Positions 24,762 through 50,155 of a DNA stretch of 50,155 nt are shown here, one piece after another. The translations under genes and the position numbers were made by a program. The notes below the pieces were generated by a model that did not search any database, was not told where the DNA came from, and was given only the letters and a program-made list of their open reading frames with translations. The stretch's first letter is position 1, and each line of letters opens with the position of its first letter. Origin of the DNA: Pseudovirgaria hyperparasitica (lineage: Eukaryota); assembly GCA_010093815.1 (NCBI GenBank), contig ML996582.1. One strand, given 5' to 3'.

Positions 24762-25011
24762 TATTAGATATGTATAAAGAAAGGTAGATAGTATTAGAGT
24801 TAAACCTATGATATAGGCGTGTATAGTAGGGAAATAGCTAGCTATAAAGCGAAAATTTTCTCTTTATTACTTCCGTTTAGATTCTATTATTCATGCCCCC
24901 CCCCCTGCGTGACACTCTATATTATTAGTATACGCTCCGAAAATCAGCGGCGGGCCGTAGTATCCTTACCTTCTAGAGTTATATAAATAATTAAGGGAGT
25001 AGTAGGTAATG

Positions 25012-25413
25012 CTAGCGAAAGCCTTCCACCCTACTTCGAACGGTAGCCATGGCGCTCTAATAGCTCTCGTCCCTCTTGTCGATAATGTTTCCCTCTTCTA
25101 GCGCTTCTAGAAGCTTAAGGACATAGTCTTAATAGTTATAGCCTATAGCTTCGTTATGGATCACGGCATTCTAAGCTACTGCTTCAATCGTACTAATCTT
25201 GGATGTATCTACTAGACATAGGAGTATTAGCTCGGAGAGAGTTATAGATTAACGAGTATTGGACTACTGTTTCTCATATCGGTAACGAGTTAAAGATCCC
25301 ATGATATTGAAAATAAGCTTTTCTTCTTTGATAGGCCCGTTAATAAAGAGACTCTAGTGCTTGTACACGTCTATATCGTTGTAAATGGCGATACTAAGTT
25401 CGGCGGTCGGCAT
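25012..25413 (-). pseudogene. RIP-inactivated host gene, HW...NCQ family (DUF6540-like by recollection)
   Basis: 134-codon frame MPTAELSIAIYNDIDVYKH*SLFI...GYN(Y)*DYVL.LLEALEEGNIID...VEGFR* with six internal TAG/TAA stops, all restorable as TGG/CAG/CAA, and no frameshift. Confidence 0.75.
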
Positions 25414-25892
25414 GTTAAAAGTAAATAAGATGCCGTATTAAGTGTTTCCAGGTAAAATTATAGGCAGTGTAGGTTGATAGTTGATATAGTACATTCGGTT
25501 CCTGTATCTTAAGCTTATTTATAGCGAGGAGCTAGCATTAACACATAATACATCCATTCCTTTATAAGTAGTGTACTCTTAGTACCCTTAAAGCGATTCG
25601 GTTCTTCTAGTATAGTAGTTAGTATATAGAGCTCTAACTTACTTTTAATAGATATAACTCTAATATATACTATATACTTTATAAGGTTCTTTAAACTAAG
25701 TTCAATTATAATTTACTTTAGAATTAGTCTTAGATATTAAGATATATATATATAATTAGATTAGTATACTTCTACTAAAATAAATATACATTTTACTTAA
25801 TAGAGAAGTTAGACTATCTCTTTAGATCTTTAGCTAAATATATATTATAAGAATTAGTAGAGCTTTATATACTTAAAGATTTAGTCTTTTAT

Positions 25893-26132
25893 TATAAGAA
25901 TTATAGATATAGAATAGTAGTCTAATAGGTTATAGAAGGATTTAGAAATATATTTAAAAGGGTAGTCTACTCTTATAATAAGGTTAATTTCTAAAGAGTA
26001 GAAATTAAGTATATACGGTCTACTTATATAGTAGTCTTACTTAATCTAGCTAACTTAATCTAGATCTATCTATTACGGACTATACTAGACTATAGTAGTC
26101 TAGTTAAGTCTATTCTAGTATTAGCTCTAATA
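25893..26132 (-). repeat. 3' LTR of Gypsy-2
   Basis: Aligns end to end with 39171-39409. Confidence 0.85.
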
Positions 26133-26341
26133 ATATTCTTCTTCTTTTTATACTTTACCCTAAAGTACTTAGCTATATATAAATCTATAATTCTATAAGT
26201 ATTATATTTATATATATATCTAATTAAATCTATATAATATTATTTATAGCCTTTATATTAGTAAACTTAAACTCTAGTTTACTTTTATTTATACATGTAC
26301 TTATCTCTTTATTATAGACTTTGGCTTTGCCTTGTCTCTAG

Positions 26342-26522
26342 TATTATATAACGGAGCCGGGACGGATAGAGGCTAGTATAGGGGTATCACGTGACCTTGC
26401 TTAAGACTATACTTAAAGCTATAACCATACGGCTTATCTCTACTCTCTCTAAGTTAAATCATAATATATCTTAATTACTATTGTAGTAACACCTTAGTTA
26501 TATCCATTATACTCTTACTTTC
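26342..26522. mobile_element. Possible solo LTR of another family within the Gypsy-2 3' region
   Basis: GC-richer patch with ATCACGTGAC, a TATA-like segment and RIPed TG...CA-like ends; no TSD could be resolved. Confidence 0.3.
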
Positions 26523-26759
26523 TAGCTACTACCTTAGAGATAGCTCTATAGATTATATAACTACTATATTAACTAAGCTTATATTTAGTTCTCTTATTCT
26601 AAATTTTCTTCTTTAGTATATCTATCTTACTCTTAAGGTAAGTTATTAAATTATATACTATCTCCTTTAGTTTAGATCTATTTAGGTCTAGAATAGTCTA
26701 TTCTTATTAGAGCTAGTTCTATATAATCTATTCGCGTTATTATAGTTACTAATTTAGCT

Positions 26760-28200
26760 TCTTTAATTACCTTTAAGACTAAATAAGTATTCTACTCTTA
26801 GATCTCTAGCTAATATATATATATAGATATCTAATACTAGTTCTATTTCTAAGCCTATCTTCTTCTCTTATAAGACTTACTCTAAAGAGATTATCTCTAC
26901 TCTAGCTATACTAGCTAAAAAATCTACTTATTATAGTAGTATAAAGGCGTACTCTAAGTTAGAGAAGAAGGTAGCTAAGACTACTACTACTATTACTACT
27001 AATATAGCTACTAGTTACTCTAATCTAGATAATTCTAGTACTAGTATTATAGAAGAGATAGCTATAAAGCCTATCTATATCTACTCGCGCTATCTATCTA
27101 CTCTATCTTCTTTAGAGAATAAAGAAGATCTTATTATAGATAATAATTAAGAGTTTATACCTTTACCGCTCTACTCTAAATACTATTTCTCTTTTTAGTC
27201 TAATATAGACTAACTTAGTTACTCTAGATTCTTTTAGAACCTTAATATTTACTCTAAACCTAGCTCTAGTAATAATAAGGCCTAGGTTACTAAAGATACT
27301 AAACGTAGTTATAGTTTATACTATAGAAAAATAGTAAACTATAGTTTAATATACTTTAAGTATATTAAGACTTATATAACTAGCTCTAAATATCTCTTCT
27401 ACTCTAACTCTAGTATTAGCTACTACTCTACTAACTATAATAGATCTATATATCTAATCTTTAAGCTCTCTATCTACTACTACTACTATACTATTCTTAG
27501 TAAAGTTTATCTTTAGATAAGTCTATTAGACTATTTTAGTCTAGAGTAATCTAAAGTTATCTATACTAATATATTTTTAGATTTCTATTTATATATAAGA
27601 TATATATAATAATCTTCGTATCTATAAGACTCTTAGCGGTTCTAGTAGTTATCTAGCTTCTATATATAGAGAGTTTAGAGAGCGCTATAAGCTCTTTCTA
27701 GAGATTATTAAAGTATAAGTTTAGAAACCGTTAATTATTATTAATCTTAGCTTATAATTTTTAGTTACTATAAGATTTCTAGTACTTAGACTATCTATTC
27801 TAGGGAGTTAGTTTTAGCTACTAAGGCCGCGGAAGAGATTTATACTATTTCTTTCTATCTATCTCTTACTACTAACGGGTCTTATAAGAGATCTACTAGT
27901 TCTTCTTCTAAGTTACCTTATAAGAGAGTATATATTCTATTCTAGATTATTCTAGACTATATTAGCTAACTTTAGGTCTAGTCGCTCTACTCTAGCGCTT
28001 AGTTATTATCTTACTAGACTCTAACTAAGCGCGTAGTTACTCTAGAGGATAAGGTCTCTAATCTCCGTTACTCTATTACTTAGTTAGTTTATTTACTATA
28101 CTCTAAGAGTAATAATAAGATAGAGAAGTAGCTCTATAGCTCTATTTACTAGGGTTTCTATATAATATATATTAGCTCTATCTATCTAGTTTCTATCCGT
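26760..28200 (+). pseudogene. Antisense spliced cargo gene of Gypsy-2 (Zn2Cys6-like cluster + coiled coil), RIPed; ends approximate
   Basis: One frame with only RIP-type stops once introns 27517-27580 and 27715-27764 are removed. TAY codons at CxxC-x19-C-x18-CxxC-x6-C spacing (27352-27510). C-terminal heptads LTKRVVTLEDKVS.LR (~28021-28100). Confidence 0.6.
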
Positions 28201-31200
28201 TTTAGTCCTTTTTAGACTATTTAGATATCTATCTACTAGTTTTCTAGTAATTTAATTCTTAACTTAATAATATTATATACGTTCTTATTTATTCTATAAC
28301 TATTAAATTCTAGGTTCTAATTTTCTTTAAGTTACTTAAATATAGATATTATATATAAATTAGTTTATCTCTCTAAATTATATTAGAGTATCTAAACTAG
28401 TAGTCTAGTAGTTATTAGTTCGGGTACTCTAACCTTTTATATTATATATTATAAGTTTAATTCCGTAGTAGAGTATCTTTTTAGTTTCTTAGTTCTATAT
28501 TCTTCTTATATATAATAGTCTATATTAGTCTATTCTAGACTTCTCTATATTATTCTATTATAATATATTATATTATATATCTATAATAGTTATTTATATT
28601 TTCTTCGTATTTAGTAACTATATATTACTTAAATTATAGGGCTACCTTATAGAGTTTTCCTAGTATATATTTAGAATTTATAATTCGATACTTTATTCTC
28701 TATAGTATTCTTCTTCTTTTTATAATAGCTCTAATAGTACTAGGTTTATAGTAGTAATATATTATTCTATAACCTCTATTTATATATAGCTATCGTGGTA
28801 CTTAAGATATATACTATAGATTTCTAGGTATTCTTATTCTTGGTATAGTTCTTCTAATAGATTTAATACTTTTAGATACTATTCTTATCGAGTCTATATT
28901 TAATAATATAGTCTACTTTATATATATCTAGTCTATCTTAGAGTATAATAGAGTATAATTATATATTTATACATTTATATATATTAGATCGAAACCTTTT
29001 AAGTAATAAGACATAGAATATATTATAGACTTTTATATTATTTCCTAGGTCGAGCTTATAGACTCTTATACTAATATAACGTTTAATTCGGAAGGGACTA
29101 GCCATTTTATAATTAAGCTTTTTATTTACTTACGATATTTATATATTATAGATATTAAGAAGGACTTTATCTCTCTTCTTATATACTTAATCTTTAACTA
29201 ATCTATTATAGTACTTTATATATAACTTATTTACTTACTAGATTATTATACGATAGTTATATATAGTTTTAAAGATTTTAATTACTAGTTTCTATATATA
29301 GACGTTAATATCTATCGTTTAGTTAAACTAGACTATATAAGATTTAAAACCTATTCTTAGACTATATTCTAGGTTCGCCTAGAAGGGGGTAATATCTATT
29401 ATACTATAATAACTATTATTATATATAAATTCTACTATACTTAGTAGAGAGACCTAGTTATCTTACTTAAAATTATAGAATATATAAAGATAGGCCTTAA
29501 GTGTTTAGTTCTATCGCTCTATCTAACTATCTATTTATAGATAGAATACTATTAATATATTCCTATTTATACCGGCTATTTCGTAGAATAATATCTAGAA
29601 TTTAGACATGAATATACTCCCTTAGTCTATAATAATCCTTTTTAGTATACTATAGACCTTAATAATCTTATTCTAGAATACTTATGCTAGTTCTTTTAAT
29701 ATAATCATCTTCTATATAGAGATATACCTAGATATCTTTATAAGTCTATCTATAATAATAAGAATTAAATTATAACTTATTCTAAGTATCTTACTTAGAG
29801 GTAAGTTAACTATAAAATCTATAGTAATATCTTTCTATATAAAGAGAGGGACTAGTAGAGGCTATAAATTCCTATATAGCTTATATCTAGATGCCTTTAT
29901 TCTTTAATAAATTAGATAAGTAGCTATCTATTCTTTAATATACTTAGATATATCTTTCTAAAAGTAGTACTAATAAATCGAGCTTAGGGTATATATATAC
30001 CTAAAATATTCTACTAGGTTAGCGTTATAGTATTAACTAACTATAGTAAATTATATATTATCTATTAGTATATAGTACTTTCTATTATAGTAGAGTAAGC
30101 CATCTATAAAGGTCTACTTATAGTCTACTTTAGTCCGTAATAACCTATCTTACTATATTTTATATAACTTTAAAACTATTAGATCTATCTTTTATAGATC
30201 CACAATTAACTAGATAAGGTCTATTTAATATATATACTAGGTACTATCGCTCTCTCTAATAGCGCTAATAAATAGCTTACTAGGGACTTTAGTACCACGT
30301 CTTTAGTTACTAGCTTTAGTCTTATAAATTTAATTACTAGTATTAGTATTAGTATCTCGCTAATTATTAGATAACTTATTATCTAACCTTATCCTTAAGA
30401 GTTAGGTCTATAGCTACTCTAGAACCCTATAGCTACTATAATCCTAGGCGCCTTCTTTATAGTTAGGTCTTCTTAATATTCTATTAGCTAGGTTTATACT
30501 TCTAGATTAATAGTAGATTATAAAGTAGAAATTTATAAGCTACTTAGTCTATTAAATCTATTAATAATTTAAAACTATTATACTTATAAACCCCTTTAAG
30601 TTATAGTAATTAGTTAGTAACTTAATATTATATATAGTACCTTTAAGATAATATCGCTACTACTTAAATAACTCTACTATCACTAGTAGCTCTTAGTTAT
30701 AAATAGTATATCTAGTCTTAATATTAGCTATCTTACGCGAGAAGAACGTAACTAGATACTATTAGACCTTTTTAGACTCTATTAGCCTAGGCTAGAAGAG
30801 TATACCTAAGATTATAAATTCTAATATATTAGTTTTAACGTAAATAGATTTAGTTAGATTAAAGTATACTAGTAATAGAGTAGTTATAAATGCTTCTTTA
30901 ATCTTCTTAAAGGATATTCTTTTAACCTCTATTAATTTAATAGATTATAATTTAATATTATACTATTTCTATCTACTATAGACCGTAATAGATAAGTTAG
31001 TAGTAGTAGTATATATATTAAGTAGTACGGCTAAATAGAAGAAGTATTTAATAAATTTTTAGTAGTAGTTAGCGAAGCTAATAAAGACACGTATATCTTA
31101 AATAGATTTTAGTTTAGGCTAGTCTACGATAGTAGTAACCCTATCTCTCTCTATAGTTATATCTTAATTAGTAATAATAAAGCTAAGAAAGTTAATATAG

Positions 31201-32537
31201 TCCTAATAGAACTCGTATTTAGATAGCTTAATATATAGCTTATACTTTTCTAGCCTATCTAGAACTATACGTACATGCTAGATATACTTCTCCTTATTAT
31301 CTAAGAAGATAAGATTATTATCTAGGTATACGATATATATTATATTAAGTAGATCTACTAGCACGTTATTAACATATACTTAGAAGGTACCTAGCGTATT
31401 AGTTAGTCTAAAAGAGACTATAGTATACTTAAAGTATCTATAATAGGTTCTAAAAGTTATTTTCTATTTATCGCCCTCCTTAATATAAAGGCGATAGTAG
31501 ATATTATATAGATTAAGCTTAGTAAAGATCTTTATATATTCTAGTCTATTAATAGACTTAGAGATAAGAGGTAGTAGATAACGATTCTTTCGCGTAATAT
31601 TATTTAGGCTATAGTAGTTAATATATAGATAGAGGCTTCTATCCTTCTTCTTTATAAAGAGAATTAGAGCTCTAGCTAGAAATATACTAGGCCTAATCTA
31701 TTCTTATATAAGGTTCTTTTTAATATATTCTTAAAGAACTTATAATTTAGGTTCTAAAAGAGGGTAGATAGGTCTATATAGAGGTTACTAGCCGTCTTTA
31801 AGATTAATAGTAAGATTAGTAGATTAGTATTAAGATAGTTTAGAGAAATCGATTACTAACACGATATATTAGTATATTTTATACTAATATAGTAGGTTTT
31901 TATCTACTTTAATACTAAGCTTACTATTTTAGATAAGTAAGAGTATATAGATAGTAGAGATCGCCTTCTTATAATCTTTATAGAATTATTTATTATTAAT
32001 AAGCTATACTAGTTTCTATTAAGGTAGGTTTATACGCTAGCTAGCTATTTTCTTAAGGAAGTCTAGTTTTAGATTATATTTCTTAAGCTATAGTATATCT
32101 AGGATTATATTAAAGGGACTATCTACCACGATAAAGGTTAAATAGTAGGGTTTCTATTTCCCTCCGCTATCCTAGATACTATATTTAATAGTATAGGTAC
32201 TATATAACTTAATAGGACTATTAATACTATAGAATATAGTATCTATTAGAGCTTAGATATTAATACTAAGTTCTTATACTTATTAAGTTAATATAATATT
32301 AGTAGCTAAACTACTATTAAGTATTATAGTCTAATATTATCTATAAGGGACCTTAATAGGTCTAGCCTATAGTTTAATATACTATTTAACTAGTTACCCC
32401 TCTATTATAGTTACATCTATAAGTTATAAGAGTTTCTTATAGACTATTAGTTTTTTATATTCTATACTAGATAGTTAGACGCGATATATTCTAGCTACTA
32501 GCACTTATAATATATAACTAATTAGTTAGTTATATTA

Positions 32538-39409: not shown

Positions 39410-41721
39410 TATATCCCCCCCCTAATCTAAGTCTATATAATCTTTAGCTATTATATTATTAGATTTAGAGTCTTTAATAGAGTCTCTATTAATATAGAGC
39501 TCCATTTCTAAATCCTTAGAAAATAATATATATTACCATAGCTTATTTAAGGCTTTAAAGTATTCTAGACTTGGATTAGATATAAATCTAGCTAGATAGC
39601 CTACTAGGTATTTTAGGTTATATCTAGTTAGACTAGTTAAATAGATAAGAGAACCAATTCCCCTTTAGAATTATCTAATATCTTTTAATTTAGCTTATAA
39701 GGGGTTTTTATCTAATTTAATACCTAGAGATAAAGGTATTTTAGATAGCTTTATATTCTCTTTATTAAACTTAATTAATAAGTTCTTAATAAAAGAGGAT
39801 TAAGATAATATAATAGAACCTTTAGTTCTATCTCTCTTTATTTCTATTTCTAGGTAATATTTAGCTTACTCTAGATTAGATATATCTAATTTAGAGTACT
39901 TAGTTATCTCTAAATAGAAGTTATCTATATCTTTAGTATTAGATGTAAAAACTAATATATTATCTATATAGGCTAAAATAATTAGATTATCTCTAATATA
40001 GACTATATTTTCAGCTATAATTTAAGTGAACTTTAAGAATATTAATATATCCTTAAGTAGGTCTTACTACTCTCTAGCTAATTATTTAAGTCTATATAAA
40101 GCTCTATTTAATTTATAGACTCTATTAGAGTAATTAGAGTCTATAAACCCCTCTAGCTAGTATATATATATAGTTTCTTTTAATCTAGTATTAGGAAAAG
40201 CTAATTTAAAGTCCTATTAATATATTTTAAGGTTATATAATCTATCTATAAGTAGTAATAAACGAATTACTATAGGTCTTATAGTATAAGTAAAAGTTTC
40301 TAGGTAATCTATTCCATATTTTTATAGAAAACCTCTAGCTATCTATCTAGCTATATACTTATTAATAGTATTATCTAGGTTTAATTTAAGTTTAAATACC
40401 CATCTACTAGAGATTATATTAGTAGAACTATTAGGTTTATCTACTAAATCCCATGTATTTTAACTTAATAAGTCATTATACTCCTTAATAGTAGTATTTT
40501 TCCATTCTATAGCATGTGTACTTTTCATAGCTTATTTATATAATTTAGACTCTATAATATCTAAGGATATATTATAAGCACTAAATTTAAATAGACTATT
40601 ATAAGTATAATAACATATAGCATTAGAACTAATATTACTATTATTAGTATAAGCTAATTCGTCTTCTAAATCTAAATTAATAGAGTCTATAAACCATCTA
40701 GGTTGTCTAGAGTCTCTAGACCCTCTAGAGAGTCTAGGTTGATTTTCTCTATTATTTATAAATTGATTCTGACTGTAATTATCACCCGATTCGGCTGTAA
40801 TTTTAGGAGTATTTGAATCATATATAGACTCGTTATCTGTGTAATTTTCGTCTTCTTCTAATTCATTTTCACTTAGTTCTCTATATATAGACTCTTGCTC
40901 TAGAGAGTCTAAGTAGAGTTTTTTACTTTTATTATAAAAAGTACTCTCTAGTATAGTAATATCTTTAGCCCATATAGTAGTATTATTACTAATATTAAGT
41001 AATTTATACTAATTATTATCATTATAGTTTATAAGATAATATAAGCTACTTCTAGGCTCTAATTTATTCTTAGGTATATGTTCCTTTTTATATACTCTAG
41101 AACCCTATACTTTTATATGTGTAATAATTGGTTTTTTACCATATTTAAGTTCATAGGGAGTTTTATACTCTATACTAGAATGTGGTATTCTATTATATAG
41201 ATAACACGCAGCTAATAGAGCTTTAGCCTAGTAATAATAAGGTAAATTAGCTTAATAAAGTAATAATCTAACTTTATTAAGTAATATCCTATTAATTCTC
41301 TCTACTTTAGAGTTCTGTTCTAGACTATAAGAACATGTATAGGTATATTCTATGCCTTTTTTATCAAAATAAGACTTATATAATAATGATTTATACTCTT
41401 TAGTATTATTAGAATGGAATCTCTTTACTTTATTATTATTATTAGACTAGTTTTCTTGTCTAGTAATATAATTCTTAGTAATTAAGAAGTTCTTATCTCT
41501 ATTTTTCATAATATCTACCTCTAGATATTTAGAATAGCCATCTAAATGAGTTATAAAGTATATATAATCATTTATAGTAGATGGTAAAGGACTATAAATG
41601 TTACTATATATAACCTCTAGATATTCCTTAGGTTTAGGAATATAATTAGACTTATATATTTTAGTATAACTAGTCTTTAGACATATTTCACACTCTTTAT
41701 ATAATAGATTATTATCTAGAA

Positions 41722-41949
41722 TGTTAGGACTTAGCCTTAGGTAGAACCCGACCTACACGTACCTTAGCTAACAGGGTTAGGAGGTAACGTGAAGGGCGGT
41801 AAATAGTTACATACTAGATAGATCGGCGTCCCTTTATATATATACTCTTAGATTCCTACTAAAAGGGTTCGGTAGTAATTCGTTCTATAATAGAATACAC
41901 CCTATTATTCTATCTAACTATACTACTATCTAATAACTCTATTCTTATA
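41722..41949 (+). repeat. 5' LTR of Gypsy-1
   Basis: TGTTAGGAC...TTCTTATA; differences from the 3' LTR are essentially transitions. Confidence 0.92.
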
Positions 41950-44900
41950 TTCGAATTACTCCCTATATAGTACTATAGTTAAGATAGTCTAACTAGAACC
42001 GAGAAGGTCGATACGATCCACTATAGAGATAAGTAATACTATATTAAATAATAGGGATCCTCTATAATTAGTATTAATTCTAGCCGTTTCTAACCGAGAA
42101 GTAGAAATATTAGACTAAATTACGGAGCTTTTAGACGAAGAAATGGTAGATACACCAAGTAACTTCTAATAATATAAAGCCGGATAATAAGTCGTGGCGG
42201 AGCCACGTAAGGTATTATAATAAACCATCGCCGAACTTTAGGAATCCGTCGCAAATTAGGCTTAAGAGATTTAAACCCTTAAAGAATAGGTAGAACGCGC
42301 GAAACTCCTTATAAAGAGACGAGAACTTAAGGAGTCTCTTAAAGAACTACGCCGAACGATAGTAGGTGGACGACTTCCTACACTAATTCAGGCGGAATTA
42401 GTTTACCTACTATTAGAGTTGTAATAATCCACCGTATACCCGGCCGCTTCGTTACCGATTTACCCTACTCCTTCCCTAGGTATGCCGAAACCTAAAGACC
42501 CGACTATATTTATAGGGAAGAACTAAAAGGAGTAGAAAGACTAGAAGAGAGACTACGAAAAGTACTTTCTTAATAACCCTCTACTCTTTTCTATTAAAGT
42601 ATAACGTATTTCGTTCGGAGAACGATACCTAGACTTATAATCCCGCGATTAATAGGATAGATAGAAGGAAGTGTAGCTACTATCTACGATAACCTAGGAA
42701 TATTTAGCTATATTTATACTAAACACCCTCGGAACAGATAGAGAACGTGAAAGAAAGGTACTATCTAAGTTAAGAAGCGTGGCATAACGACCGAACTAGA
42801 CACCTACTTAACTACTATAATACCTCTAAAACCTATAGGATAATATCCCTACGCTATAGGAAAATATTTATATATTCTAGTTTCGCGAAGTACTACTTCC
42901 ATTAATCCACAAAAGACTAGAAATAGTATTATTAAGTTTTAACTATCTATATAAATTAGAGGAGAAAGCTAACAAATACTACCGCATCCTTAAGGAACGC
43001 GGCTCTCTAGGTAAAACCAACGAACCCTATACGGGTTAGAAACGAGGTCGATCGAATACGTTCGATTAAGAGTAACCTTACCGCGATTAGCGCTAGAAGA
43101 GCGTAAATCGGGGTAGAAACGCGTTAAGAGGATACTAAAATAATCGAGGCGGTGCTTCTTAACGCGGAAAAGGATAAGGCATAGACTTAAATATAACACC
43201 TATTATAAAATAGTAGAATTATAGCGCACTTCGTTACTATAAGTATAGAGAAATAGAATATATTTCGCCTAACTATAAGAATCCGAAAAAAGAATAGGCT
43301 AGTACACGAGACCTAACCACGTCCTTAGCTAAATTATATATATTTAGAAGGAGCCGTAGCGCCTTCCGGCGAGTAAAGACCTAATATTACTAAAAGTATC
43401 GTTACCCATAGTAAATAGTAATAAAACTATATAGGCCCTTATAGATACTAGTATAGAAGATAACTATATTTTATCGATTCTCGTAAAGGAGTATAGATTA
43501 TCGTATAATCTTAGTAAAGTTAGCCGAACTATTATAGTTAATAGACATGAAGTTAGAACTTTAGGTAAAGCTATAACGAATTACGAAGTTCATAACTCGA
43601 AGATAATAAAATAGTAGATGTCTAATAAATTTATTATGGCTAATATTAGCTAATAGAATATGATTCTAGGGATGCCTTAGCTTAGACGCCTAAACCCTAT
43701 CCTTGATTTTTAGAAGGAGACATTAACGTTCCGATAATACTATAGTAAATTATACTAGTAAGTCGTAACTATTAGTAAGGAGGCATGGAACCTTACCGTA
43801 CGGACCCGATCGTCGCTAATCTATCTTACGTCCTTATTAATCATTAATAAAGATAAGAATAATAGTAATAATCGGGGCGAAGACACGCTACCTAATGTAT
43901 ATTCGTAGTATACGGATGTGTTTTTAGTAGGAGATACATTACTTCTTCCTAATCACGGGCCGTATAAGCTAAAGATTAAGCTTAAAGAGGGAGTAGACGT
44001 CCCTTATAGTCTACTTTACCTACTTTCGAGACTAGAACTCGAAGTTCTTTATAAATATATTAAAGAATATCTTAAAAGAGACTAGATACGTCGTAGTATA
44101 TTATCGGCCGGCGTACCTATTCTCTTCGTAAAGAAGAAAGACGGAAGTTTACGTCTATGCGTCGACTATTAGGCACTAAATATAGTAACTAAGAAGAATC
44201 GTTATCCATTACCGCTAGTTAGTAAATCTTTAGACTAATTAATAAAGGTAAAGTACTTTACGAAGCTAGATTTACGAGATATATATTACCGGCTTTAAAT
44301 TCGTTACGGAGATAAGTAGAAAACCGCATTTCGGACTAGATATAGTTATTTTAAGTATACTATTATACTATTTAGGCTAATAAATGCGCTAGGAGCGTTT
44401 TAAGGATATATTAATACTATACTCGTAGGATTACTTAACGTGATTTACGTAGTTTATCTTAATAATATACTGATTTACTCCGATAGCATGTAGGATTATA
44501 AAGAATACGTGAAATCGGTACTAAATCGTCTAAGGTAGTATAAACTCTACGCAAAATTATCTAAATGCGAGTTTTACTAATAAGAAGTTAGGTTTCTCGG
44601 CTTTATTATAATATATAGCGGCCTAAAAATGGAGCCGGAGCGTGTAAAGACTATTATAGAATAGCTAGAACCTACTACTATACGTTAAATTAGAATATTT
44701 ATAGGTTTCGTGAACTATTATCGTAAATTCATTATAGGCTTCTTACGAATTATAGCGCCGCTTAATAAACTTATAGAGAATGGCGGTAAAATCTCTATAG
44801 GTAGGCGAGTATAGCGTAAAGCTAAGTCGGTCGAGATATAGTTAACGCCGGAAGCGCGAGATACGTTCCGATTATTAAAGAATTACTTTATAACTACGCC

Positions 44901-47359
44901 GATTCTTAGGCATTTCGATCCCGAGAAGTATATTTAGGTTAAAACTAACGCGTTAGGATTCGTAATTACTAGAATTATTAGTTAACCATATAAAGATACG
45001 AAAGATAAGGTGTAATAGTACCCGGTTACTTTCTTTTCCTATAAAATAGCGGATATAGAGACGCGTTATAACACGCACGACTAGGAACTACTTATAATTA
45101 TTAAGAGTTTTAAGTAATAGTAACATTATTTAGAAGGCTCTATATATTAGATCGAATTATTATCGGATTATATAAATCTACGTTACTTTATGTCGACTAA
45201 GGTCCTTAATTACTAATAAGTACGTTAGGCTAAGTAGATGTTAATATTTAACTTTAAAATCTTATATAAAGCTAGAAGAGAGAATAAAGCTAATCCTCTA
45301 TCACGGCGTAAAGATTATAAGAAATCGTTATAGAATAACGTAGATAGTCGGTGTAAGTTAGACTATGCTATACTTTAGATACTATAAGACTAGTTATCTA
45401 ATAGAATACTAGAAGCTAGGATACTTTCGGCGATTCTCCGCGGGAATTAGAGCGGGTATTAAGTAATCTAAATAAACGTCTAAGAAACTAAGAAAACCCT
45501 TAAAGACTTAATTAAATCTACCTAGAATTCTAATATATTAGTAAAGAAAGTCATAAGTATAAAAGGAAGCGCTATAGATCCGCCGTAGTTATTAAGGTAG
45601 GAATAACAATTAGACGCGATCTACTTCTAAGGCCGACTCTACGTGCTAGAAGGCGACTTATAAATTAATATTTTAAGGGAATAGCACGATTACGTGTTAG
45701 TAGGGCACTTTAACATTATAAGAATAGTTAATTTAATCCGAAGGACGTACGACTAGCTAGGTCTTTATAAATATATAAAAGACTACGTAAAAACGTATAA
45801 CGTTTACCAGTATACGAAAGTATATAGACACTTACTATATAGCGAATTAAGGCCATTACCTATGCTAAAGGAGGCATGGAAGGAATTATTAATAGGTTTC
45901 ATTATAGATCTACCCCTAAGTAAGTGTTCTAGACACATTTATAATAGTTTACTTATAGTTCTAGATAGATTTACGAAGATATTATACTACATCCCTATAA
46001 GGAAGACGATCTAAGCACCGGATCTTATAGATATACTACTCCGTGACGTAGTCCGGCTCTATAGTATACCGAATAGTATAGTTTCGGATAGAGGTCCGTA
46101 GATAACGTCTAAATTTTAGAAGGATTTCTACTATACGCTAGGAATTAAGCGGAAACTTAGTACTACGTTCTATCTATAAATAGATAGGTAGACGGAGCGA
46201 TAGAATTAGATAGTCGAGGCGTATTTACGCGTATATTATAACTATAAGTAGGATAACTAGATAAGGTTAGTCTGTGTCGCGGAATTCGCGTACAATAATA
46301 GCCGATATACGTTAACCTACGGACTTAGTTCAAAGTAGAACGACCTAACGTTAAAGCAATAGAAATTACTATAGAACTATTCCAAACGCAAAGAAGCGTT
46401 GTAAAGTTACTATAAGATACTACGAATTATAGTAAATCATACCATGATAAGGGTAGAAAACCCATGATCTTCAATGTTAGGGACAAAGTTTTACTAAATA
46501 GTAAGAATATTCATAGTATTAGGCCAAAGAAGAAGCTTAACTATATGATAATAGATCTATATAAGATTACTTATGTAATTAATAACTAGGCGTACGAGTT
46601 GCAACTCCCTCCTATATTAAAGATATATAATGTATTCTATATTACGCTTCTCGAGCCATTTCATGCCTTATTATTACTAGATCGTTCTAAATAGATACTA
46701 TATAAAGTAGTTACGTAAGAAGGTATAGATATCTACGAAGTTAAGTAGATACTTAGCTAGTAACGCGCCGAAGATAGCACGTGGCTATATAAAATTTATT
46801 AGAAAGGATATAATCCTAATAAAGATACTTAGGAACCTATAATAAACATTAGTAAAGTAGCGATATTAGTATATAAGTAGCGATTAGCAAAGGAAGCTAC
46901 GGAATCGTAGAGAATTATACTAAAGTACGGCGATTCGATATTTTTTAGTATAGTTCGGCGCCAAGAACGGCCGCCTAAAAGGAAGAAGGTAAAAGAGACA
47001 TAGATCTTTAAAATATTCTAAGGAATTAAGGAACTTCCTTAGAAAGTTTGAACTTAGAACTTTAAAAAATTTAACTAAAAAAGAGACTTAGAAAAATAAT
47101 TTACTAAGAGAAATAGACATCGAAAATCGGTGCTAATTAGTATAGATCAGTATAGATTACTAAAGAGATTAAAGAAGTTATTATTAAAGAAAGATAAAAT
47201 TAAGAAAGCTAAAAGAAAATATAAAGATCTATATAGATCTATATAAACTCGTACTAATCTATCTAGAAGAAGTAAGATCGCTTTAAAATTAAAACTAAAA
47301 AACTAAAAACGCTAGATAAAAGAGATATATTAGTACTAATCGGTATAGATCTAAACCGA

Positions 47360-48341
47360 TTAAGTCGGAGTAGGAGTAGAAGTACTAATTACCGCGATAG
47401 TTATATCTAATTCCTTCCGCTAGTTCTTATTTAGTATAGTATAGAGCTTTATAATATAAGTCTCTAGCCTTTCGTTCCGACGCTATAAATTCTATATAGC
47501 GCGCCTTATAGCTATAAACTCCTCTATAGAAACCTACGGAGTAGCGGGACCTAGGATAGAAAGGGATAGACCGGCACGGGCACGCTAAGAATTATATAAA
47601 TTAGCAAAAAGATTTAACGATTAGTATAGAACTATATACCTTTAGTATAGAAACTTCTAGATTAGAGCTATCTTCCCTAAATTTATAGCTCTTTAGCATA
47701 CACGAGGAAGGAACCTTAGCCTTTTTACTAGAACCTTTTCTAGGGATTTTAATATCGCTAGTATATAGAAAGAAGTCCGAAGTAGTAGAGATTTTAGTAC
47801 TATTATAGAGATTAATATATATTAGTAAGAATCTATAACGATTTAAGAAAAACGATATTACCTAGTAATTATAGTAATAATAGCTATAGTAGATTCCGAT
47901 AAATCCTTACGGATCTTATTAGAATCGTACTCCTAGGCGTAACCCTTACCTTAGGTATATAGCTCGTAGAAAGCCTTCTCTAAGGCGTTACGATCAGTAG
48001 TACCACGCTCCTTATCAGTAGAGGTTACTAGAGGCCTAGTAGTAATCTATACTAATATAAGTAAATCTACGTAAAGTTCTTCGAACTTACTTAAATACCT
48101 ATAAGTAATAACGCTTCTTAGTTATATAAGTACTATATATTATAGATTTAGTACTACCGTGAGTAATATACGACGGAAAGCGATAACTATAATAATATAT
48201 AGCTAGATTATTAGAGCCCGGCCTAGGTCGGGGTAGATTAATGGCTTTCGACATGTCGGTAATATATATAAGATAGGGATTATTCGAAGGCGCCTATTTC
48301 CGCGCCGATTACTTTAGAGTATCGAGATTTCGGGAAACCAT
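47360..48341 (-). pseudogene. Antisense four-exon cargo gene of Gypsy-1 (Zn2Cys6-like cluster + coiled coil), RIPed
   Basis: ATG at 48341. Introns 48098-48047 (52 nt), 47861-47800 (62 nt) and 47639-47585 (55 nt), all GT..TAG, with CTAAT branch points in the last two. The spliced frame is continuous with only RIP-type stops. Confidence 0.7.
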
Positions 48342-48825
48342 ATTATAATTATTATTAATTTATACGGATTATTACGAATTATATTATTACTAGCTAAGGA
48401 TGGCACGAAAATTAGTAAATTGCGTAAATCGTACTAAATTATAGTAAATCTATATAAATCTATGTCTATAAGGATCGGGTAATATACCTAATAATCTAAA
48501 AAACTCTATAAAGAGTTAAGAAGTTTTTTAAAGAAAGGAATATTTCTAAGAAAAGATTTTAATATAGGTAGTACCTAGGCTTACCTAATTATATTACGTA
48601 ATACGCTAGGCCTAATTAGGTAATCTCACCTATATAAGAAGTTAAGATAAATAAAATCTAGTTTATTAGGAAAACGCTTATATAAATCTTAGATTGGTAA
48701 ATATTAGTAAGTATCTAAGACGAAGTATAGAGAACGACTAAGGTCTTACGAGACTTAGGATAGGGATATAGGGATAGATAATAATCTAGGTTACTAATAG
48801 TAGCTTCCTAGAGGGAAGGAATAAT

Positions 48826-49053
48826 TATTAGGACTTAGCCTTAGGTAGGACCCGATCTATAAATACCTTAGCTAATAGGGTTAGAAGGTGACGTGAAGGG
48901 CGGTAAATAGTCACGTGCTAGATAGATCGGCGTCTCTTTATATATATACTCTCGGATTCCTACCGAAAGGCTTTGGTAGTAATTCGTTCTATAATAGAAT
49001 ACACCCCATTGTTCTATCTAACTACACTACTATCTAATAACCCTATTCTTACA
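48826..49053 (+). repeat. 3' LTR of Gypsy-1
   Basis: TATTAGGAC...TTCTTACA, directly after the PPT. Confidence 0.92.
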
Positions 49054-50155
49054 TAGGAATTCTATAATCTTATCATTTTTAAGTTGATTTAATGCCTTTT
49101 GATTTATATAGCCTAATCTATTATACTATAAATCTATAGTAGAATTAATAGAACTACTTTGAGTGTCTATAATCTCATTTTCTATAGAGGTATATAAAGA
49201 ATCAGGTTCTTTATATATAGAAGTTGTCTTAAGAATACTAATATTATTTATTATACTAGCCTTAGCTAATAGCCTCTTATTCTTTAAATAGATACAGGCA
49301 TAGTTATCTTTAAATAATATAGACTTTCCATCTCTAATTATCTTTCCTATAGATAATAGATTTACTCTAAAATTAGGTATATAAAGGTAGTTCTTAATTA
49401 ATATCTCTATATTAGTAGATGTAATTAGAACTCTATAATCGCCTATACTACTAGCATTTATAACTCTATTTGAATTTCTCTATTTAATAGTATTATTATA
49501 TTCTTTAATACTAATAAAGAGACTCTTATTAGAGCATATATTAATGCTAGCCCCTGAATCTATAATCTAAGAGGTTTTATAGAAAGAGCTATTAATAGAC
49601 TCTATTTTTTAAATAGTAGAGTCATTAATTAAAGTAGTAAATACCTCTTCTTCTTGTTTAGAAGAAGCATTTATCTCTTTATTCTTCTCTTTCTCTTTCT
49701 TTTGCTTTTACTTTCCTTTCCCCTTATTAGAGGGTTTTAAATAAGGATATTTTTTAAAACACTTATCTTCTATATGATTTGGTTTCTTATAGTAAGAGCA
49801 TTTATTAGAACTGGTATTATTAGCCATTTCTATATTAATTATCTCATTTTTTGGTAAAGACTTTGATTTTATCCTTCTAGACTCATCTAGTAGATAATTA
49901 AATATTTCATCTATATCTAAATCCTTATCCTTTCTAATAGACTAGGTAATAATAGTTACTAGGTTTTCATATTCCTTAGTAAGGTTATTTAATACCCATG
50001 CTATTATGAATTTATTAGGTAATTTAAGTAATTTAGACTTTAGATTATCTCTAATTCTTATAATCTTATTTAAATACTCCTCTATATTCTTAGAGGCTCT
50101 AAGAGTAGTATTAAATAATTCTTTATATAATAAGAATTTAGAGCTAAACCCCTTT

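Follow-up and report, generated by a model that had tools for sequence, protein, structure and literature searches.

The window (the whole stretch of DNA that was analysed, 50,155 nucleotides) contains a RIP-degraded chromovirus that occupies 41722-49053 on the plus strand. The parts of this element, and the basis on which each was placed, are as follows.

41717-41721: left target-site duplication (TAGAA), from reading of the sequence
41722-41949, plus strand: 5' LTR of 228 nt with a TG..TA end; the repeat pair is 89% identical and its ends were set by reading
43400-46664, plus strand: pol, RIP-damaged, with RT, RNase H, integrase and SH3_Tf2-1, from Pfam
46734-46859, plus strand: chromodomain-like pol end, then a Lys-rich tail to ~47300, from Pfam, tblastx and codon score
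48810-48821, plus strand: polypurine tract AGAGGGAAGGAA directly before the 3' LTR, from reading
48826-49053, plus strand: 3' LTR, from the repeat pair and reading
49054-49058: right target-site duplication (TAGGA), from reading of the sequence

The RT, RNase H and integrase domains stand in gypsy order, with Pfam matches to RVT_1 (E = 8.5e-18), RT_RNaseH_2 (E = 1.1e-14), Integrase_H2C2 (E = 9.3e-8) and SH3_Tf2-1 (E = 1.5e-9); rve falls under its Pfam cut-off. The RT-INT part of pol has accumulated 66 stops in 996 codons. The Pfam Chromo match on the pol end is itself below threshold (E = 0.077, 13.4 bits versus a cut-off of 25.1); this part has a tblastx match in the equivalent part of the second gypsy element of the window, and PF00385 is carried by nearly all of the 120 pol relatives among the matches listed. 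Similarity of pol did not place the element beside any particular group. The family is a high-copy one, spacer included, as all 30 of 30 bins are covered by 11,174 contig pieces of sequencing run X1. These pieces have no listed indel for the family in the spacer, so the frame changes described below are not private ones. Codon scores trained on pol are positive to ~47200 and pol-like codon usage extends to ~47200-47300, which leaves a pol-signal-free part of ~1.5 kb, shorter than the ~1.8-kb spacer of a first-pass annotation of this DNA.

Between the end of the pol signal (~47300) and the polypurine tract (48810) and 3' LTR (48826), the minus strand carries a frame that runs from an ATG at 48341-48339 to a TAA at 47362-47360 once three GT..AG segments are removed. 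The antisense, intron-containing gene that the first-pass annotation placed between pol and the 3' LTR, with its ATG at 48341 and three GT..AG segments, is borne out by a rise of the period-3 χ2 from 15.0 to 60.9 when these segments are removed. The gene model (47360-48341) is listed here in the direction of its reading.

48690-48752, minus strand: possible 5'-UTR intron, GTAAGA..CTTACTAATAT..AAG, resembling intron 2, from a repeat family in the window
48091-48341, minus strand: exon 1, ATG at 48341, three in-frame RIP-type stops; period-3 χ2 21.8, z 4.6 (48099-48341)
48036-48090, minus strand: intron 1, 55 nt, GTAAGT..TAG; it shifts the frame and its ends are uncertain
47862-48035, minus strand: exon 2; period-3 χ2 24.3, z 5.7
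47800-47861, minus strand: intron 2, 62 nt, GTAATA..CTTACTAATAT..TAG; present in all 8 best of 119,791 GT..AG triples
47640-47799, minus strand: exon 3, without a stop, with the basic patch PRKGSSKKAKV; period-3 χ2 13.0, P = 0.027
47585-47639, minus strand: intron 3, 55 nt, GTATAT..GCTAAT..TAG; matches a strict intron pattern
47360-47584, minus strand: exon 4, helical-looking end, TAA at 47362-47360; co-linear alignment with the C-terminal half of group B relatives (see below)

The spliced frame comprises 270 codons, with nine internal stops (two TAA and seven TAG) and the terminal TAA. The continuous frame that had been proposed stands, with these nine stops in it; the accompanying argument that the stops are restorable has no discriminating value, since RIP could account for any TAA or TAG whatever. 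Two alternatives for intron 1 (48112-48052 and 48098-48047) score equally and keep the same phase. Intron 2 holds a branch-site-like TACTAAT, and the exact 11-mer CTTACTAATAT occurs three times in the window, always on the minus strand and twice in the spacer. Exon 1 matches exons 2 and 3 in its codon-position composition, and its start codon is ATA instead of ATG in most other copies. By itself, exon 4 gives no significant period-3 signal (χ2 = 7.8), and an overlapping frame in it is fully open; the family differences listed for this exon (47576, 47564 and 47561) are all third-position synonymous in the frame.

The period-3 signal is limited to ~47260-48400 and is missing from 48310-49000 and from the LTR, and flanking non-coding parts reach χ2 values of 1.7 to 5.8. 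The spliced value of 60.9 compares with a maximum of 29.7 in 1000 shuffles, and was matched by 1 of 5000 random triple deletions and by 20 of the 119,791 alternative GT..AG triples. Codon-position composition is alike in exons 1, 2 and 3, with A making up.37-.47 of first positions, C.26-.30 of second positions and T.45-.47 of third positions. The summed length of the minus-strand open reading frames (ORFs) of 86, 64, 54 and 42 aa is also greater than expected (P = 0.003 under a first-order and 0.0095 under a second-order Markov model, 2000 simulations each). Stops, including the terminal one, fall on 10 of 270 codons in the minus model, compared with 18 of 270 in the codon-aligned plus frame and 66 of 996 in true pol, and it is on the minus strand only that the GT..AG segments restore the phase of the coding signal. 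Pol-trained codon usage scores weakly over the gene and is of little power in its detection.

We examined 79 metagenomic chromovirus loci; in 35 of them, the sequence includes the end of pol together with 600 nt or more beyond it. Of these 35 loci, 12 have C-x2-C-x6-C in an antisense ORF of 100 aa or longer that is situated between pol and the 3' LTR, and 7 of these 12 have the full six-Cys Zn2Cys6 spacing; sense-strand equivalents in the same 35 loci number 0 for the half-site and 0 for the strict spacing. Across all six frames of the 79 loci, the strict motif was found 11 times antisense and once sense, with two of the antisense instances being Cys-rich junk. The ORFs fall into homologous groups (E = 1e-94 to 1e-4), here called group A (L063, L068, L071, L074 and L079) and group B (L027, L036, L045, L046 and L064). 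The first-pass annotation had called for dN/dS between families; computed on these ORFs, it is 0.18-0.29 (five of seven pairs, those that were computable). In L036, removal of a 57-nt GTAAGT..TGCTAAC..CAG intron yields a single 339-aa ORF, and L027 has a 47-nt GT..AG intron at the same place. Antisense ORFs in three further loci (L003, L012 and L024) are without a Cys cluster.

The proteins of these relatives are ~170-340 aa in length and combine a six-Cys cluster (C-x2-C-x6-C-x8..11-C-x2-C-x6..7-C, followed by a long helix), a Lys/Arg-rich patch and long helices that are predicted to pair, with an acidic tail in one group. Pfam Zn_clus was detected in 1 of 18 ORFs at 14.6 bits, below its cut-off of 21, and was absent from the other 17. 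The best PDB sequence match of the group A profile is the Zn2Cys6 domain of LAC9, with all six Cys aligned and an E value of only 0.22; in Foldseek searches, 12 of the 14 weak matches listed are Zn2Cys6 DNA-binding domains; and structural neighbours in the Atlas carry the automatic name Zn(2)-C6 fungal-type. When the clusters of groups A and B were compared using hhalign, they aligned weakly (E = 0.017, probability 2.7). A predicted homodimer of one relative scored 0.46 (best control, 0.01), its runs agreed in at least 77% of contacts and the partner pLDDT was at least 76; among solved structures, 21 of 30 pairs formed by one chain attain the homodimer mark and 0 of 23 single chains do, and the model supports binding short of proof.

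In the window copy, the strings quoted in the first-pass annotation are all present in mutated form (PYLIYI, YSTY-x6-Y, SSKKAKV, K|RARAG and EFIAIRRAI*NL*RRNERLE). The candidate for a former Cys cluster lies in exon 1.

48105-48194, minus strand: Tyr cluster Y-x2-Y-x4-Y-x10-Y-x2-Y-x6-Y, ending in YSTYITKKRYY

A loose [CY] pattern matched 13 times in 39,302 codons, and this match alone is free of stops. We also scored the RIPed part of the window with a matrix built from 21 half-sites of the relatives (C-x2-C-x6-C) that allows for RIP. The segment 48099-48143 on the minus strand, in frame in exon 1, ranks first of 39,134 positions by a thin lead (11.9 versus 11.8 and 11.6 for the next two), and the proposed second half-site, Y-S-T-Y-x6-Y, is the best match in the RIPed part of the window to that of the relatives. 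The first half had been drawn as P-C-L-x-C-I followed by x25, and this assignment was not supported: it picks 6 of the 11 Tyr in the stretch, its second Tyr codon is TAC, still Tyr, in most other copies, and the tighter spacing at 48105-48194 (x2, x4, x10, x2, x6) fits the relatives better while remaining non-canonical. The canonical six-position pattern C-x2-C-x6-C-x5-12-C-x2-C-x6-8-C had 0 strict matches with Tyr allowed for Cys; the window has no Cys at Zn2Cys6 positions, and Pfam Zn_clus (PF00172) did not appear on its exons at E up to 10. A comparison of copies for ancestral Cys was also proposed in the first-pass annotation. Among the 14 family differences listed in the gene stretch (40 of 171 listed overall), none restores Cys, and instances of His, Tyr and Arg are seen: one His becomes Tyr in other copies at 48161, and for the single Cys codon of exon 3 (47702-47700) most copies have CGT (Arg). 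Cluster, basic patch and helical end follow one another in the window gene as they do in group B. As for the claim of a Zn2Cys6-like protein with a basic patch and a helical end, intact relatives do encode such proteins, but window and relatives alike miss the Pfam Zn_clus threshold.

Direct searches with the degraded gene returned no homologue. A word-indexed protein search found none for exon 1 and none among 333 candidates for the exon 2/4 frame; HMMER, run with the exon 1/3 frame on 1.84 billion representatives, returned nothing beyond a spurious bacterial repeat protein; no Pfam family matched the antisense gene at E up to 10, whether all frames or single exons were used; the 79 metagenomic loci had no tblastx match to the spacer; the purine/pyrimidine pattern of exon 2 with 17 plain bases had 0 metagenome matches; viral contigs scanned with the 86-aa ORF and with a piece of pol held no relative; and the 64-aa ORF of exon 1 met only unrelated bacterial clusters in the ESM Atlas, at 0.88. 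In alignment that allows for RIP, the window gene scored 52.6 against the group B profile at gap costs of 7/0.5, a value that none of 200 shuffles and none of 132 real RIPed segments attained; part of this relaxed-gap score is compositional, given that the reversed query reached 44.1 and the best unrelated segment 47.2. Scores were not significant for the group A profile (P = 0.2) or, at standard gap costs, for that of group B (P = 0.36). In pairwise RIP-aware scoring, 4 of 16 relatives beat all 40 of their own shuffles, with a highest z of 3.7. Full-length homology of the window gene to the genes of the relatives is no more than suggestive at the level of sequence, the relaxed-gap score and some of the pairwise ones being all that exceed their controls.

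We favour, with moderate confidence, the reading that 47360-48341 on the minus strand is a RIP-inactivated accessory gene of the family that stands in, or parallel to, the class of antisense zinc-cluster genes in the relatives. The most serious alternative, which we hold to be unlikely, is a real antisense intron-containing accessory gene that does not encode a zinc cluster and is unrelated to those genes, with Tyr and His as the original residues and a resemblance that comes from the composition of Tyr-rich RIPed DNA, from Lys-rich patches and from helices. The coding evidence is independent of the identity of the protein and would serve this alternative equally well; further points in its favour are the non-significant group A and standard-gap tests, the reversed-query score, the His-to-Tyr difference at 48161, the second Tyr of the earlier proposal that stays Tyr in most copies, the non-canonical spacing and the cluster-free antisense ORFs of L003, L012 and L024. 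However, the half-site that ranks first of 39,134 positions falls in frame in exon 1 (the chance of the top position falling in a 270-codon gene is ~0.7%), the cluster, basic patch and helical end follow one another as in group B, and Cys-cluster genes occupy the same position in 12 of 35 relatives.

It is improbable that there is no gene here, and that the frames, GT..AG pairs and Tyr pattern are products of chance in an AT-rich, TpA-rich RIPed 3' untranslated region, helped by free choice of introns and restored codons. Any TAA or TAG can be called restorable, the minus strand of the AT-rich parts has 0.4-0.8 intron-like motifs per kb in other places (versus ~2 per kb here, three sites), homologues were missing from the direct searches and pol-trained codon scores are near zero, all of which a chance origin would accommodate. 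What it does not accommodate is a period-3 signal that is as strong as that of real pol, local, and coherent only with these introns (1 of 5000; 20 of 119,791); fully open chance frames in this region (86 and 54 aa) are without such a signal (χ2 of 8.0 and 7.0). Moreover, the spacer of a second, diverged gypsy element in the window gives an antisense coding signal of this kind (χ2 up to 57). When the spacers of the two elements were compared by tblastx and in purine/pyrimidine dot-plots, matches were confined to pol, and BLASTP between their antisense frames found nothing. Rfam had 0 matches in the window.

We consider it very improbable that the gene is a reverse-oriented fragment of a host gene, introns included, that was captured by one ancestor of the family and is carried as a passenger without a role in the element. 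Introns and a host-like gene structure would fit such an origin, as would the lack of detectable tblastx similarity to the antisense genes of the 79 loci; yet the protein searches gave no match to a host protein either, the gene is laid out as a whole one, from start codon to stop codon, it occupies the conserved antisense gene position of the relatives in the same orientation, and a family of very many copies carries it. A broken third sense ORF after pol is scarcely credible: period-3 statistics are strand-blind and the codon-aligned plus frame has stops at the density of true pol (18/270 and 66/996), but the signal changes frame three times with no indels listed in the family, the segments between frames begin with GT and end with AG when read on the minus strand and not on the plus strand, stops are roughly half as frequent in the minus frame, C is enriched at position 2 of the minus codons (the usual coding bias) and the genes of the relatives here are antisense (12 versus 0).

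Antisense genes at this position are already known, in Boty (brtn) and in plant elements; brtn of Boty-like elements is reportedly from Zhao et al. 2011 (Virology 417:248). Published descriptions give brtn as an extra opposite-strand gene in the interval between pol and the 3' LTR of Boty-like, chromodomain-bearing Ty3/gypsy elements of Botrytis cinerea and Sclerotinia (PMC7264820, PMC8365987, PMC4227169, PMC5987419), and as described it is like the window gene in position and orientation. The plant Ty3/gypsy elements Grande, RIRE2, Retand and PvRetro13 are described as having antisense additional ORFs between pol and the 3' LTR in most family copies, again with the position and orientation of the window gene (PMC7264820). 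Compared by description only, they differ in that they belong to plant, mostly non-chromovirus lineages and that the account of them reports no zinc-cluster identity (PMC7264820). Our literature search found no paper in which antisense genes of fungal retrotransposons are linked to zinc-cluster proteins, and the words 'antisense' and 'zinc' are absent from 'LTR Retrotransposons in Fungi' (PMC3248453). The zinc-cluster identity of the antisense gene and its spread appear to be undescribed so far.

Among characterized proteins, Gal4, Lac9, Hap1, Put3, Leu3, Pho7 and AlcR, which combine Zn(II)2Cys6 with a dimerising coiled coil, resemble the proteins of the relatives in six-Cys spacing and long helix. 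Groups A and B match the window gene in place and orientation, with the 5' end toward the LTR, and share the cluster, basic patch and helices; they differ in intron number (three in the window gene, one in group B, no apparent one in group A) and in the distance from the cluster to the basic patch, which exon 2 makes ~55 residues longer in the window gene. HBZ of HTLV-1 is antisense-encoded, transcribed from the 3' LTR side, spliced and nuclear, and modulates LTR-driven transcription. It is a bZIP protein of a vertebrate retrovirus, with a dimerising domain of DNA-binding type, and offers the closest analogy, with no homology, for how the window gene may have worked.

On the reading that we favour, the window gene is probably a dead copy of a real antisense accessory gene of the zinc-cluster/coiled-coil class; that it belongs to, or parallels, this class is argued from position, orientation, architecture and one strong motif match. 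Such an accessory gene would lie between pol and the polypurine tract and point toward pol, with four exons and three short spliceosomal introns, whose antisense orientation relative to the genomic RNA would let them persist through retrotransposition. Its transcript would start near or in the 3' LTR, and the intact protein would be nuclear, dimeric and a sequence-specific binder of DNA, acting on the LTR of the element itself, which it might switch on or limit, or on host promoters. TGY-to-TAY and CAR-to-TAR changes would then have destroyed the gene in the window copy. The putative roles raised in the first-pass annotation (transactivator, anti-silencing or copy-control factor, driven from the 3' LTR) are ones that we infer as candidates.

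The relatives suggest that many fungal retrotransposons carry their own DNA-binding regulator. More tentatively, and with more doubt than conviction, we propose that a considerable fraction of fungal chromoviruses (12 of the 35 in our sample) encode an antisense Gal4-like zinc-cluster/coiled-coil transcription factor of their own beside the 3' LTR, sometimes intron-bearing, that would control LTR activity or host genes in the manner of HBZ, the window gene being a RIP-killed, three-intron member. Exchange of such genes with the many Zn2Cys6 factors of fungal hosts may also have taken place. In the usual description, LTR retrotransposons consist of gag and pol and rely on the host for transcription factors. 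If true, the proposal would give fungal chromoviruses a regulator of their own in the form of an element-encoded DNA-binding dimer, would provide hosts with a ready source of zinc-cluster genes and would account for the long 'spacers' to which annotation pipelines assign nothing in many fungal gypsy elements. Since some members are intact (L036, L063, L068, L071 and others), the class can be tested directly, and period-3 statistics combined with RIP-aware scoring can point to genes of this kind in genomes where heavy RIP defeats homology search.

Several minor observations concern the sequencing runs and the repeats of the window. None of the runs is listed as RNA. The three joints listed from the runs are single-contig deletion variants instead of splice forms and were not counted as evidence. 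Run X3 (organism B) covers 13 of 30 bins and has no contig over ~47250-48290; it was not counted as evidence. Tandem repeats are short AT-rich ones only. Runs X4 and X6, whose kind of data is unknown and which were likewise not counted as evidence, contain a 155-nt contig over 47394-47546, a 359-nt contig over 48498-48852 and LTR pieces, all of them of low depth except for one LTR piece.

The focal element is a Ty3/gypsy chromovirus degraded by repeat-induced point mutation (RIP), and it lies in the final 30 kb of the window among nested, mutated, AT-rich transposons (GC 0.22–0.43). ORF evidence places its insertion within a minus-strand copia-like element. Its pol matches Pfam RVT_1, RT_RNaseH_2, Integrase_H2C2 and SH3_Tf2-1; rve and Chromo score under threshold.

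Features of the focal chromovirus
41722–41949, +, 5′ LTR (228 nt; 89% identical to the 3′ LTR)
48810–48821, +, polypurine tract
48826–49053, +, 3′ LTR (228 nt; ends set by reading)
5 nt, target duplication, TAGAA (left) and TAGGA (right)

Nearly all differences between this copy and others are transitions, chiefly at CpA/TpG, which is the signature of RIP in this family. Pol-like codon usage runs to about 47200–47300, and about 1.5 kb remains up to the polypurine tract. All 30 bins are covered by 11,174 contig pieces of sequencing run X1, so this spacer belongs to a very high-copy family; as no indel is listed among the differences, the frame changes in the antisense gene discussed below do not stem from indels unique to this copy. 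Elsewhere in the element, the pol tail (47133–47249) is unusually conserved in a contig of run X3, from a second organism, with 1 letter different in 117, other X3 pieces across the element being 5–12% different. In run X6, a 2,840-nt contig at a depth of 2,604 (remaining contigs, 4–120) includes 96 nt of less mutated, LTR-like sequence that corresponds to 48864–48959 of the 3′ LTR. The copia-like element is split into 40532–41752 and 49126–50155 (minus strand); its ORFs of 158, 101, 117 and 77 amino acids, which by reading only resemble integrase and a gag with a zinc knuckle, carry the strongest period-3 signal of the region (χ2 65–71).

The spacer very likely contains a real gene, antisense to pol. 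The start codon (ATG, 48341), stop codon (TAA, 47360) and three intervening GT..AG segments that the first-pass annotation drew are all present in the sequence, and its choice of strand and of three introns stands. The spliced frame has 270 codons and 9 internal stops, every one TAA or TAG; that they are restorable carries no weight, because any TAA or TAG qualifies. The minus-strand ORFs of 86, 64, 54 and 42 amino acids are unusually open (P = 0.003 and 0.0095 under two Markov nulls). Codon-position periodicity is strong in exons 1 and 2 (χ2 = 21.8 and 24.3), moderate in exon 3 (13.0) and flat in the ATG-to-LTR region (1.7), the LTR (5.8) and the pol tail (5.2), and a sliding profile limits the signal to about 47260–48400. 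Exons 1–3 have one composition in common (position 1 A-rich, position 2 C-rich, position 3 T-rich), and their phases become coherent only once the three GT..AG segments are removed: χ2 is 60.9 spliced versus 15.0 unspliced, with a maximum of 29.7 in 1,000 shuffles. Random triple deletions reached 60.9 once in 5,000 trials, and of the 119,791 non-overlapping triples formed from 135 GT..AG candidates of 45–80 nt, 20 scored as high as the chosen introns. Intron 2 is retained in all of the top eight triples, which also contain intron 3 or a close variant of it; for intron 1, three placements are equivalent in phase. Exon 4 taken alone shows no periodicity signal, and it also contains an overlapping open frame. 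Intron-like motifs are enriched just two- to fivefold in the spacer, and pol-trained codon scores across the gene are about zero.

Period-3 statistics cannot tell the strands apart, and on the plus strand the codon-aligned frame has 18 stops in 270 codons, a density like that of the true pol (66 in 996). We prefer the minus strand as the coding strand because GT..AG segments occur at the phase changes there only, because it has half as many stops and because the genes of relatives are antisense. Three 47-nt repeats (47588–47634, 47809–47855 and 48691–48737; 68–74% alike) correspond in position to intron 3, intron 2 and what may be a 5′-UTR intron, and two of them have in common the exact minus-strand 11-mer CTTACTAATAT.

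Direct searches with the focal exons and spacer (protein search, Pfam, and tblastx including 79 chromovirus loci) returned no homologue. Those metagenomic loci (L-numbers) came from a pol query, which yielded 5,025 chromovirus polyproteins, and an alignment of 24 of them. Many have long opposite-strand ORFs downstream of pol that form mutually homologous groups, and the grouped ORFs carry six Cys with Zn2Cys6 spacing, for example C-x2-C-x6-C-x8-C-x2-C-x6-C. Across the 79 loci, read in all six frames, the strict six-Cys motif occurs 11 times antisense (2 being Cys-rich junk in L072) versus once in sense (L046). Among the 35 loci that include the pol C terminus and at least 600 nt beyond (22 more being too short to judge), 12 have an antisense ORF of at least 100 amino acids with at least C-x2-C-x6-C, and 7 have the strict motif in an antisense ORF; both sense counts are 0. 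The dN/dS values of these ORFs (0.18–0.29 in five computable pairs; two pairs were saturated), together with introns in two loci, indicate that they are real genes. Locus L036 has a 57-nt intron (GTAAGT..TGCTAAC..CAG) directly upstream of the first Cys; its removal leaves a single 339-amino-acid ORF that runs from a charged helical N terminus through the cluster, a patch rich in Lys and helices to an acidic tail. An intron of 47 nt (GT..AG) occupies the same position in L027.

Three loci have much longer antisense genes than the others: L016 (6157–8036, minus; adjoining ORFs of 270 and 369 amino acids, C-x4-C-x6-C-x10-C-x2-C-x6-C), L033 (3077–4282, minus; 402 amino acids, two half-sites 14 residues apart) and L003 (6066–7012, minus; two overlapping ORFs without a Cys cluster). 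The gene in L046 (8511–9173, plus) is the sole one of group B, one of two homologous groups considered here, on the strand of the matched pol; this locus may be rearranged or contain a second element that runs the other way.

Evidence under every formal threshold points to these proteins being Zn2Cys6-like, and we therefore use that name and do not file them under PF00172. Pfam Zn_clus matches 1 of 18 ORFs (14.6 bits; cut-off 21), and the top PDB sequence match (E = 0.22) is to the cluster of LAC9, in which each of the six Cys aligns. The protein of L063, in group A, falls in Atlas clusters of 62–140 ‘hypothetical proteins’, mainly from Ascomycota, and its structural neighbours there are auto-named Zn(2)-C6 fungal-type. 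Group A proteins are about 170–190 amino acids long with no apparent intron, and are modelled as the cluster followed by an 85-residue helix (pLDDT 74 overall, more than 90 in the helix). The predicted homodimer scores 0.46 versus 0.01 for the best control, a mark that 21 of 30 solved pairs of one chain attained but none of 23 single chains, with contact agreement of at least 77% and partner pLDDT of at least 76 between runs; the model supports homodimerization but falls short of showing it. In the L063 model (residues 68–129), the long helices pair antiparallel (97 with 97, 83 with 111), whereas the Gal4 coiled coil is parallel.

Under RIP, TGY (Cys) codons become TAY (Tyr), and exon 1 of the focal gene is Tyr-rich. 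We scored every window codon as a distribution over possible pre-RIP codons. With a 15-column matrix of 21 distinct half-sites from the relatives, applied to six frames of 19.6 kb of RIPed DNA, IIYSTYITKKRYYL* (48099–48143, minus, in frame in exon 1) ranks first of 39,134 positions with a score of 11.9, a thin margin over the runners-up (11.8 and 11.6); the chance of the top half-site falling within the 270-codon gene is about 0.7%. Rank 8 (27304–27348), a C-x2-C-x6-C-like Tyr site, belongs to the antisense frame of the second gypsy element in the window. When Tyr is counted as Cys, the canonical six-position pattern has no match; loosening the first loop to 4–8 gives 13, of which the sole stop-free one (48105–48194; x2, x4, x10, x2, x6) has, like group A, a His three residues past the third cluster position. 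This compact cluster is a better candidate than the PCLxCI followed by 25 residues drawn in the first-pass annotation, although its spacing is non-canonical; the earlier cluster falls, its second Tyr codon being TAC in most copies, while the general zinc-cluster-like type stands.

Whole-protein similarity to the relatives appears equivocal. P is 0.2 with the group A profile and, at gap costs of 11/1, 0.36 with the group B profile; at 7/0.5 the latter scores 52.6 versus 31.9 ± 5.4 for shuffles (0 of 200 reached it), 44.1 for the reversed query and at best 47.2 for 132 unrelated RIPed segments. In the co-linear group B alignment, the matched parts are the basic patch, an acidic stretch, GP(S/A), EE(M/F)..RR, (S/R)N(D/E)R and LET(F/Y), and in pairwise RIP-aware comparison 4 of the 16 relatives score above every one of their 40 shuffles. 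None of the 14 family-difference positions listed within the gene restores a Cys (131 further rows lie outside those listed), His 48161 is Tyr in other copies, and the sole Cys of the model was formerly Arg. On balance, we lean towards the focal gene being a RIP-killed member of, or a parallel to, the zinc-cluster-like class.

The focal copy is inactive. In a functional copy, the antisense transcript would start upstream of the ATG, in the stretch up to the 3′ LTR or inside the LTR, and may carry a 5′-UTR intron (48752–48690) that resembles intron 2. Once spliced, it would encode a small nuclear protein that dimerizes via its helices and binds DNA via the cluster, the element's own LTRs being natural targets; it could activate them, as the acidic tail of group B might suggest, or restrain them. 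For plant elements and, among fungi, for Boty (brtn), antisense genes have been reported in the interval from pol to the 3′ LTR (PMC7264820, PMC8365987, PMC4227169, PMC5987419). As described there, brtn is like the focal gene in being antisense and in its position. A full-text literature search found no zinc-cluster protein tied to an antisense gene of a fungal retrotransposon. The value of the finding lies chiefly in the class of intact relatives reached through the focal gene.

The second gypsy element (about 25000–32500, minus strand) is diverged, with 66% identity in the reverse transcriptase. Its pol-to-LTR spacer (26827–27945, plus) has a strong antisense coding signal (period-3 χ2 up to 57), and frame +1 has open stretches of 107, 76 and 51 amino acids, with 4 stops in 230 codons; this frame has no detectable similarity to the focal gene. 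The element is flanked by two direct copies of a LINE-like element (19465 to about 25000 and 32541 to about 38000), 72–92% identical and 13,075 bp apart, with minus-strand Pfam matches to RVT_1 (4.5 × 10−17) and Exo_endo_phos_2.
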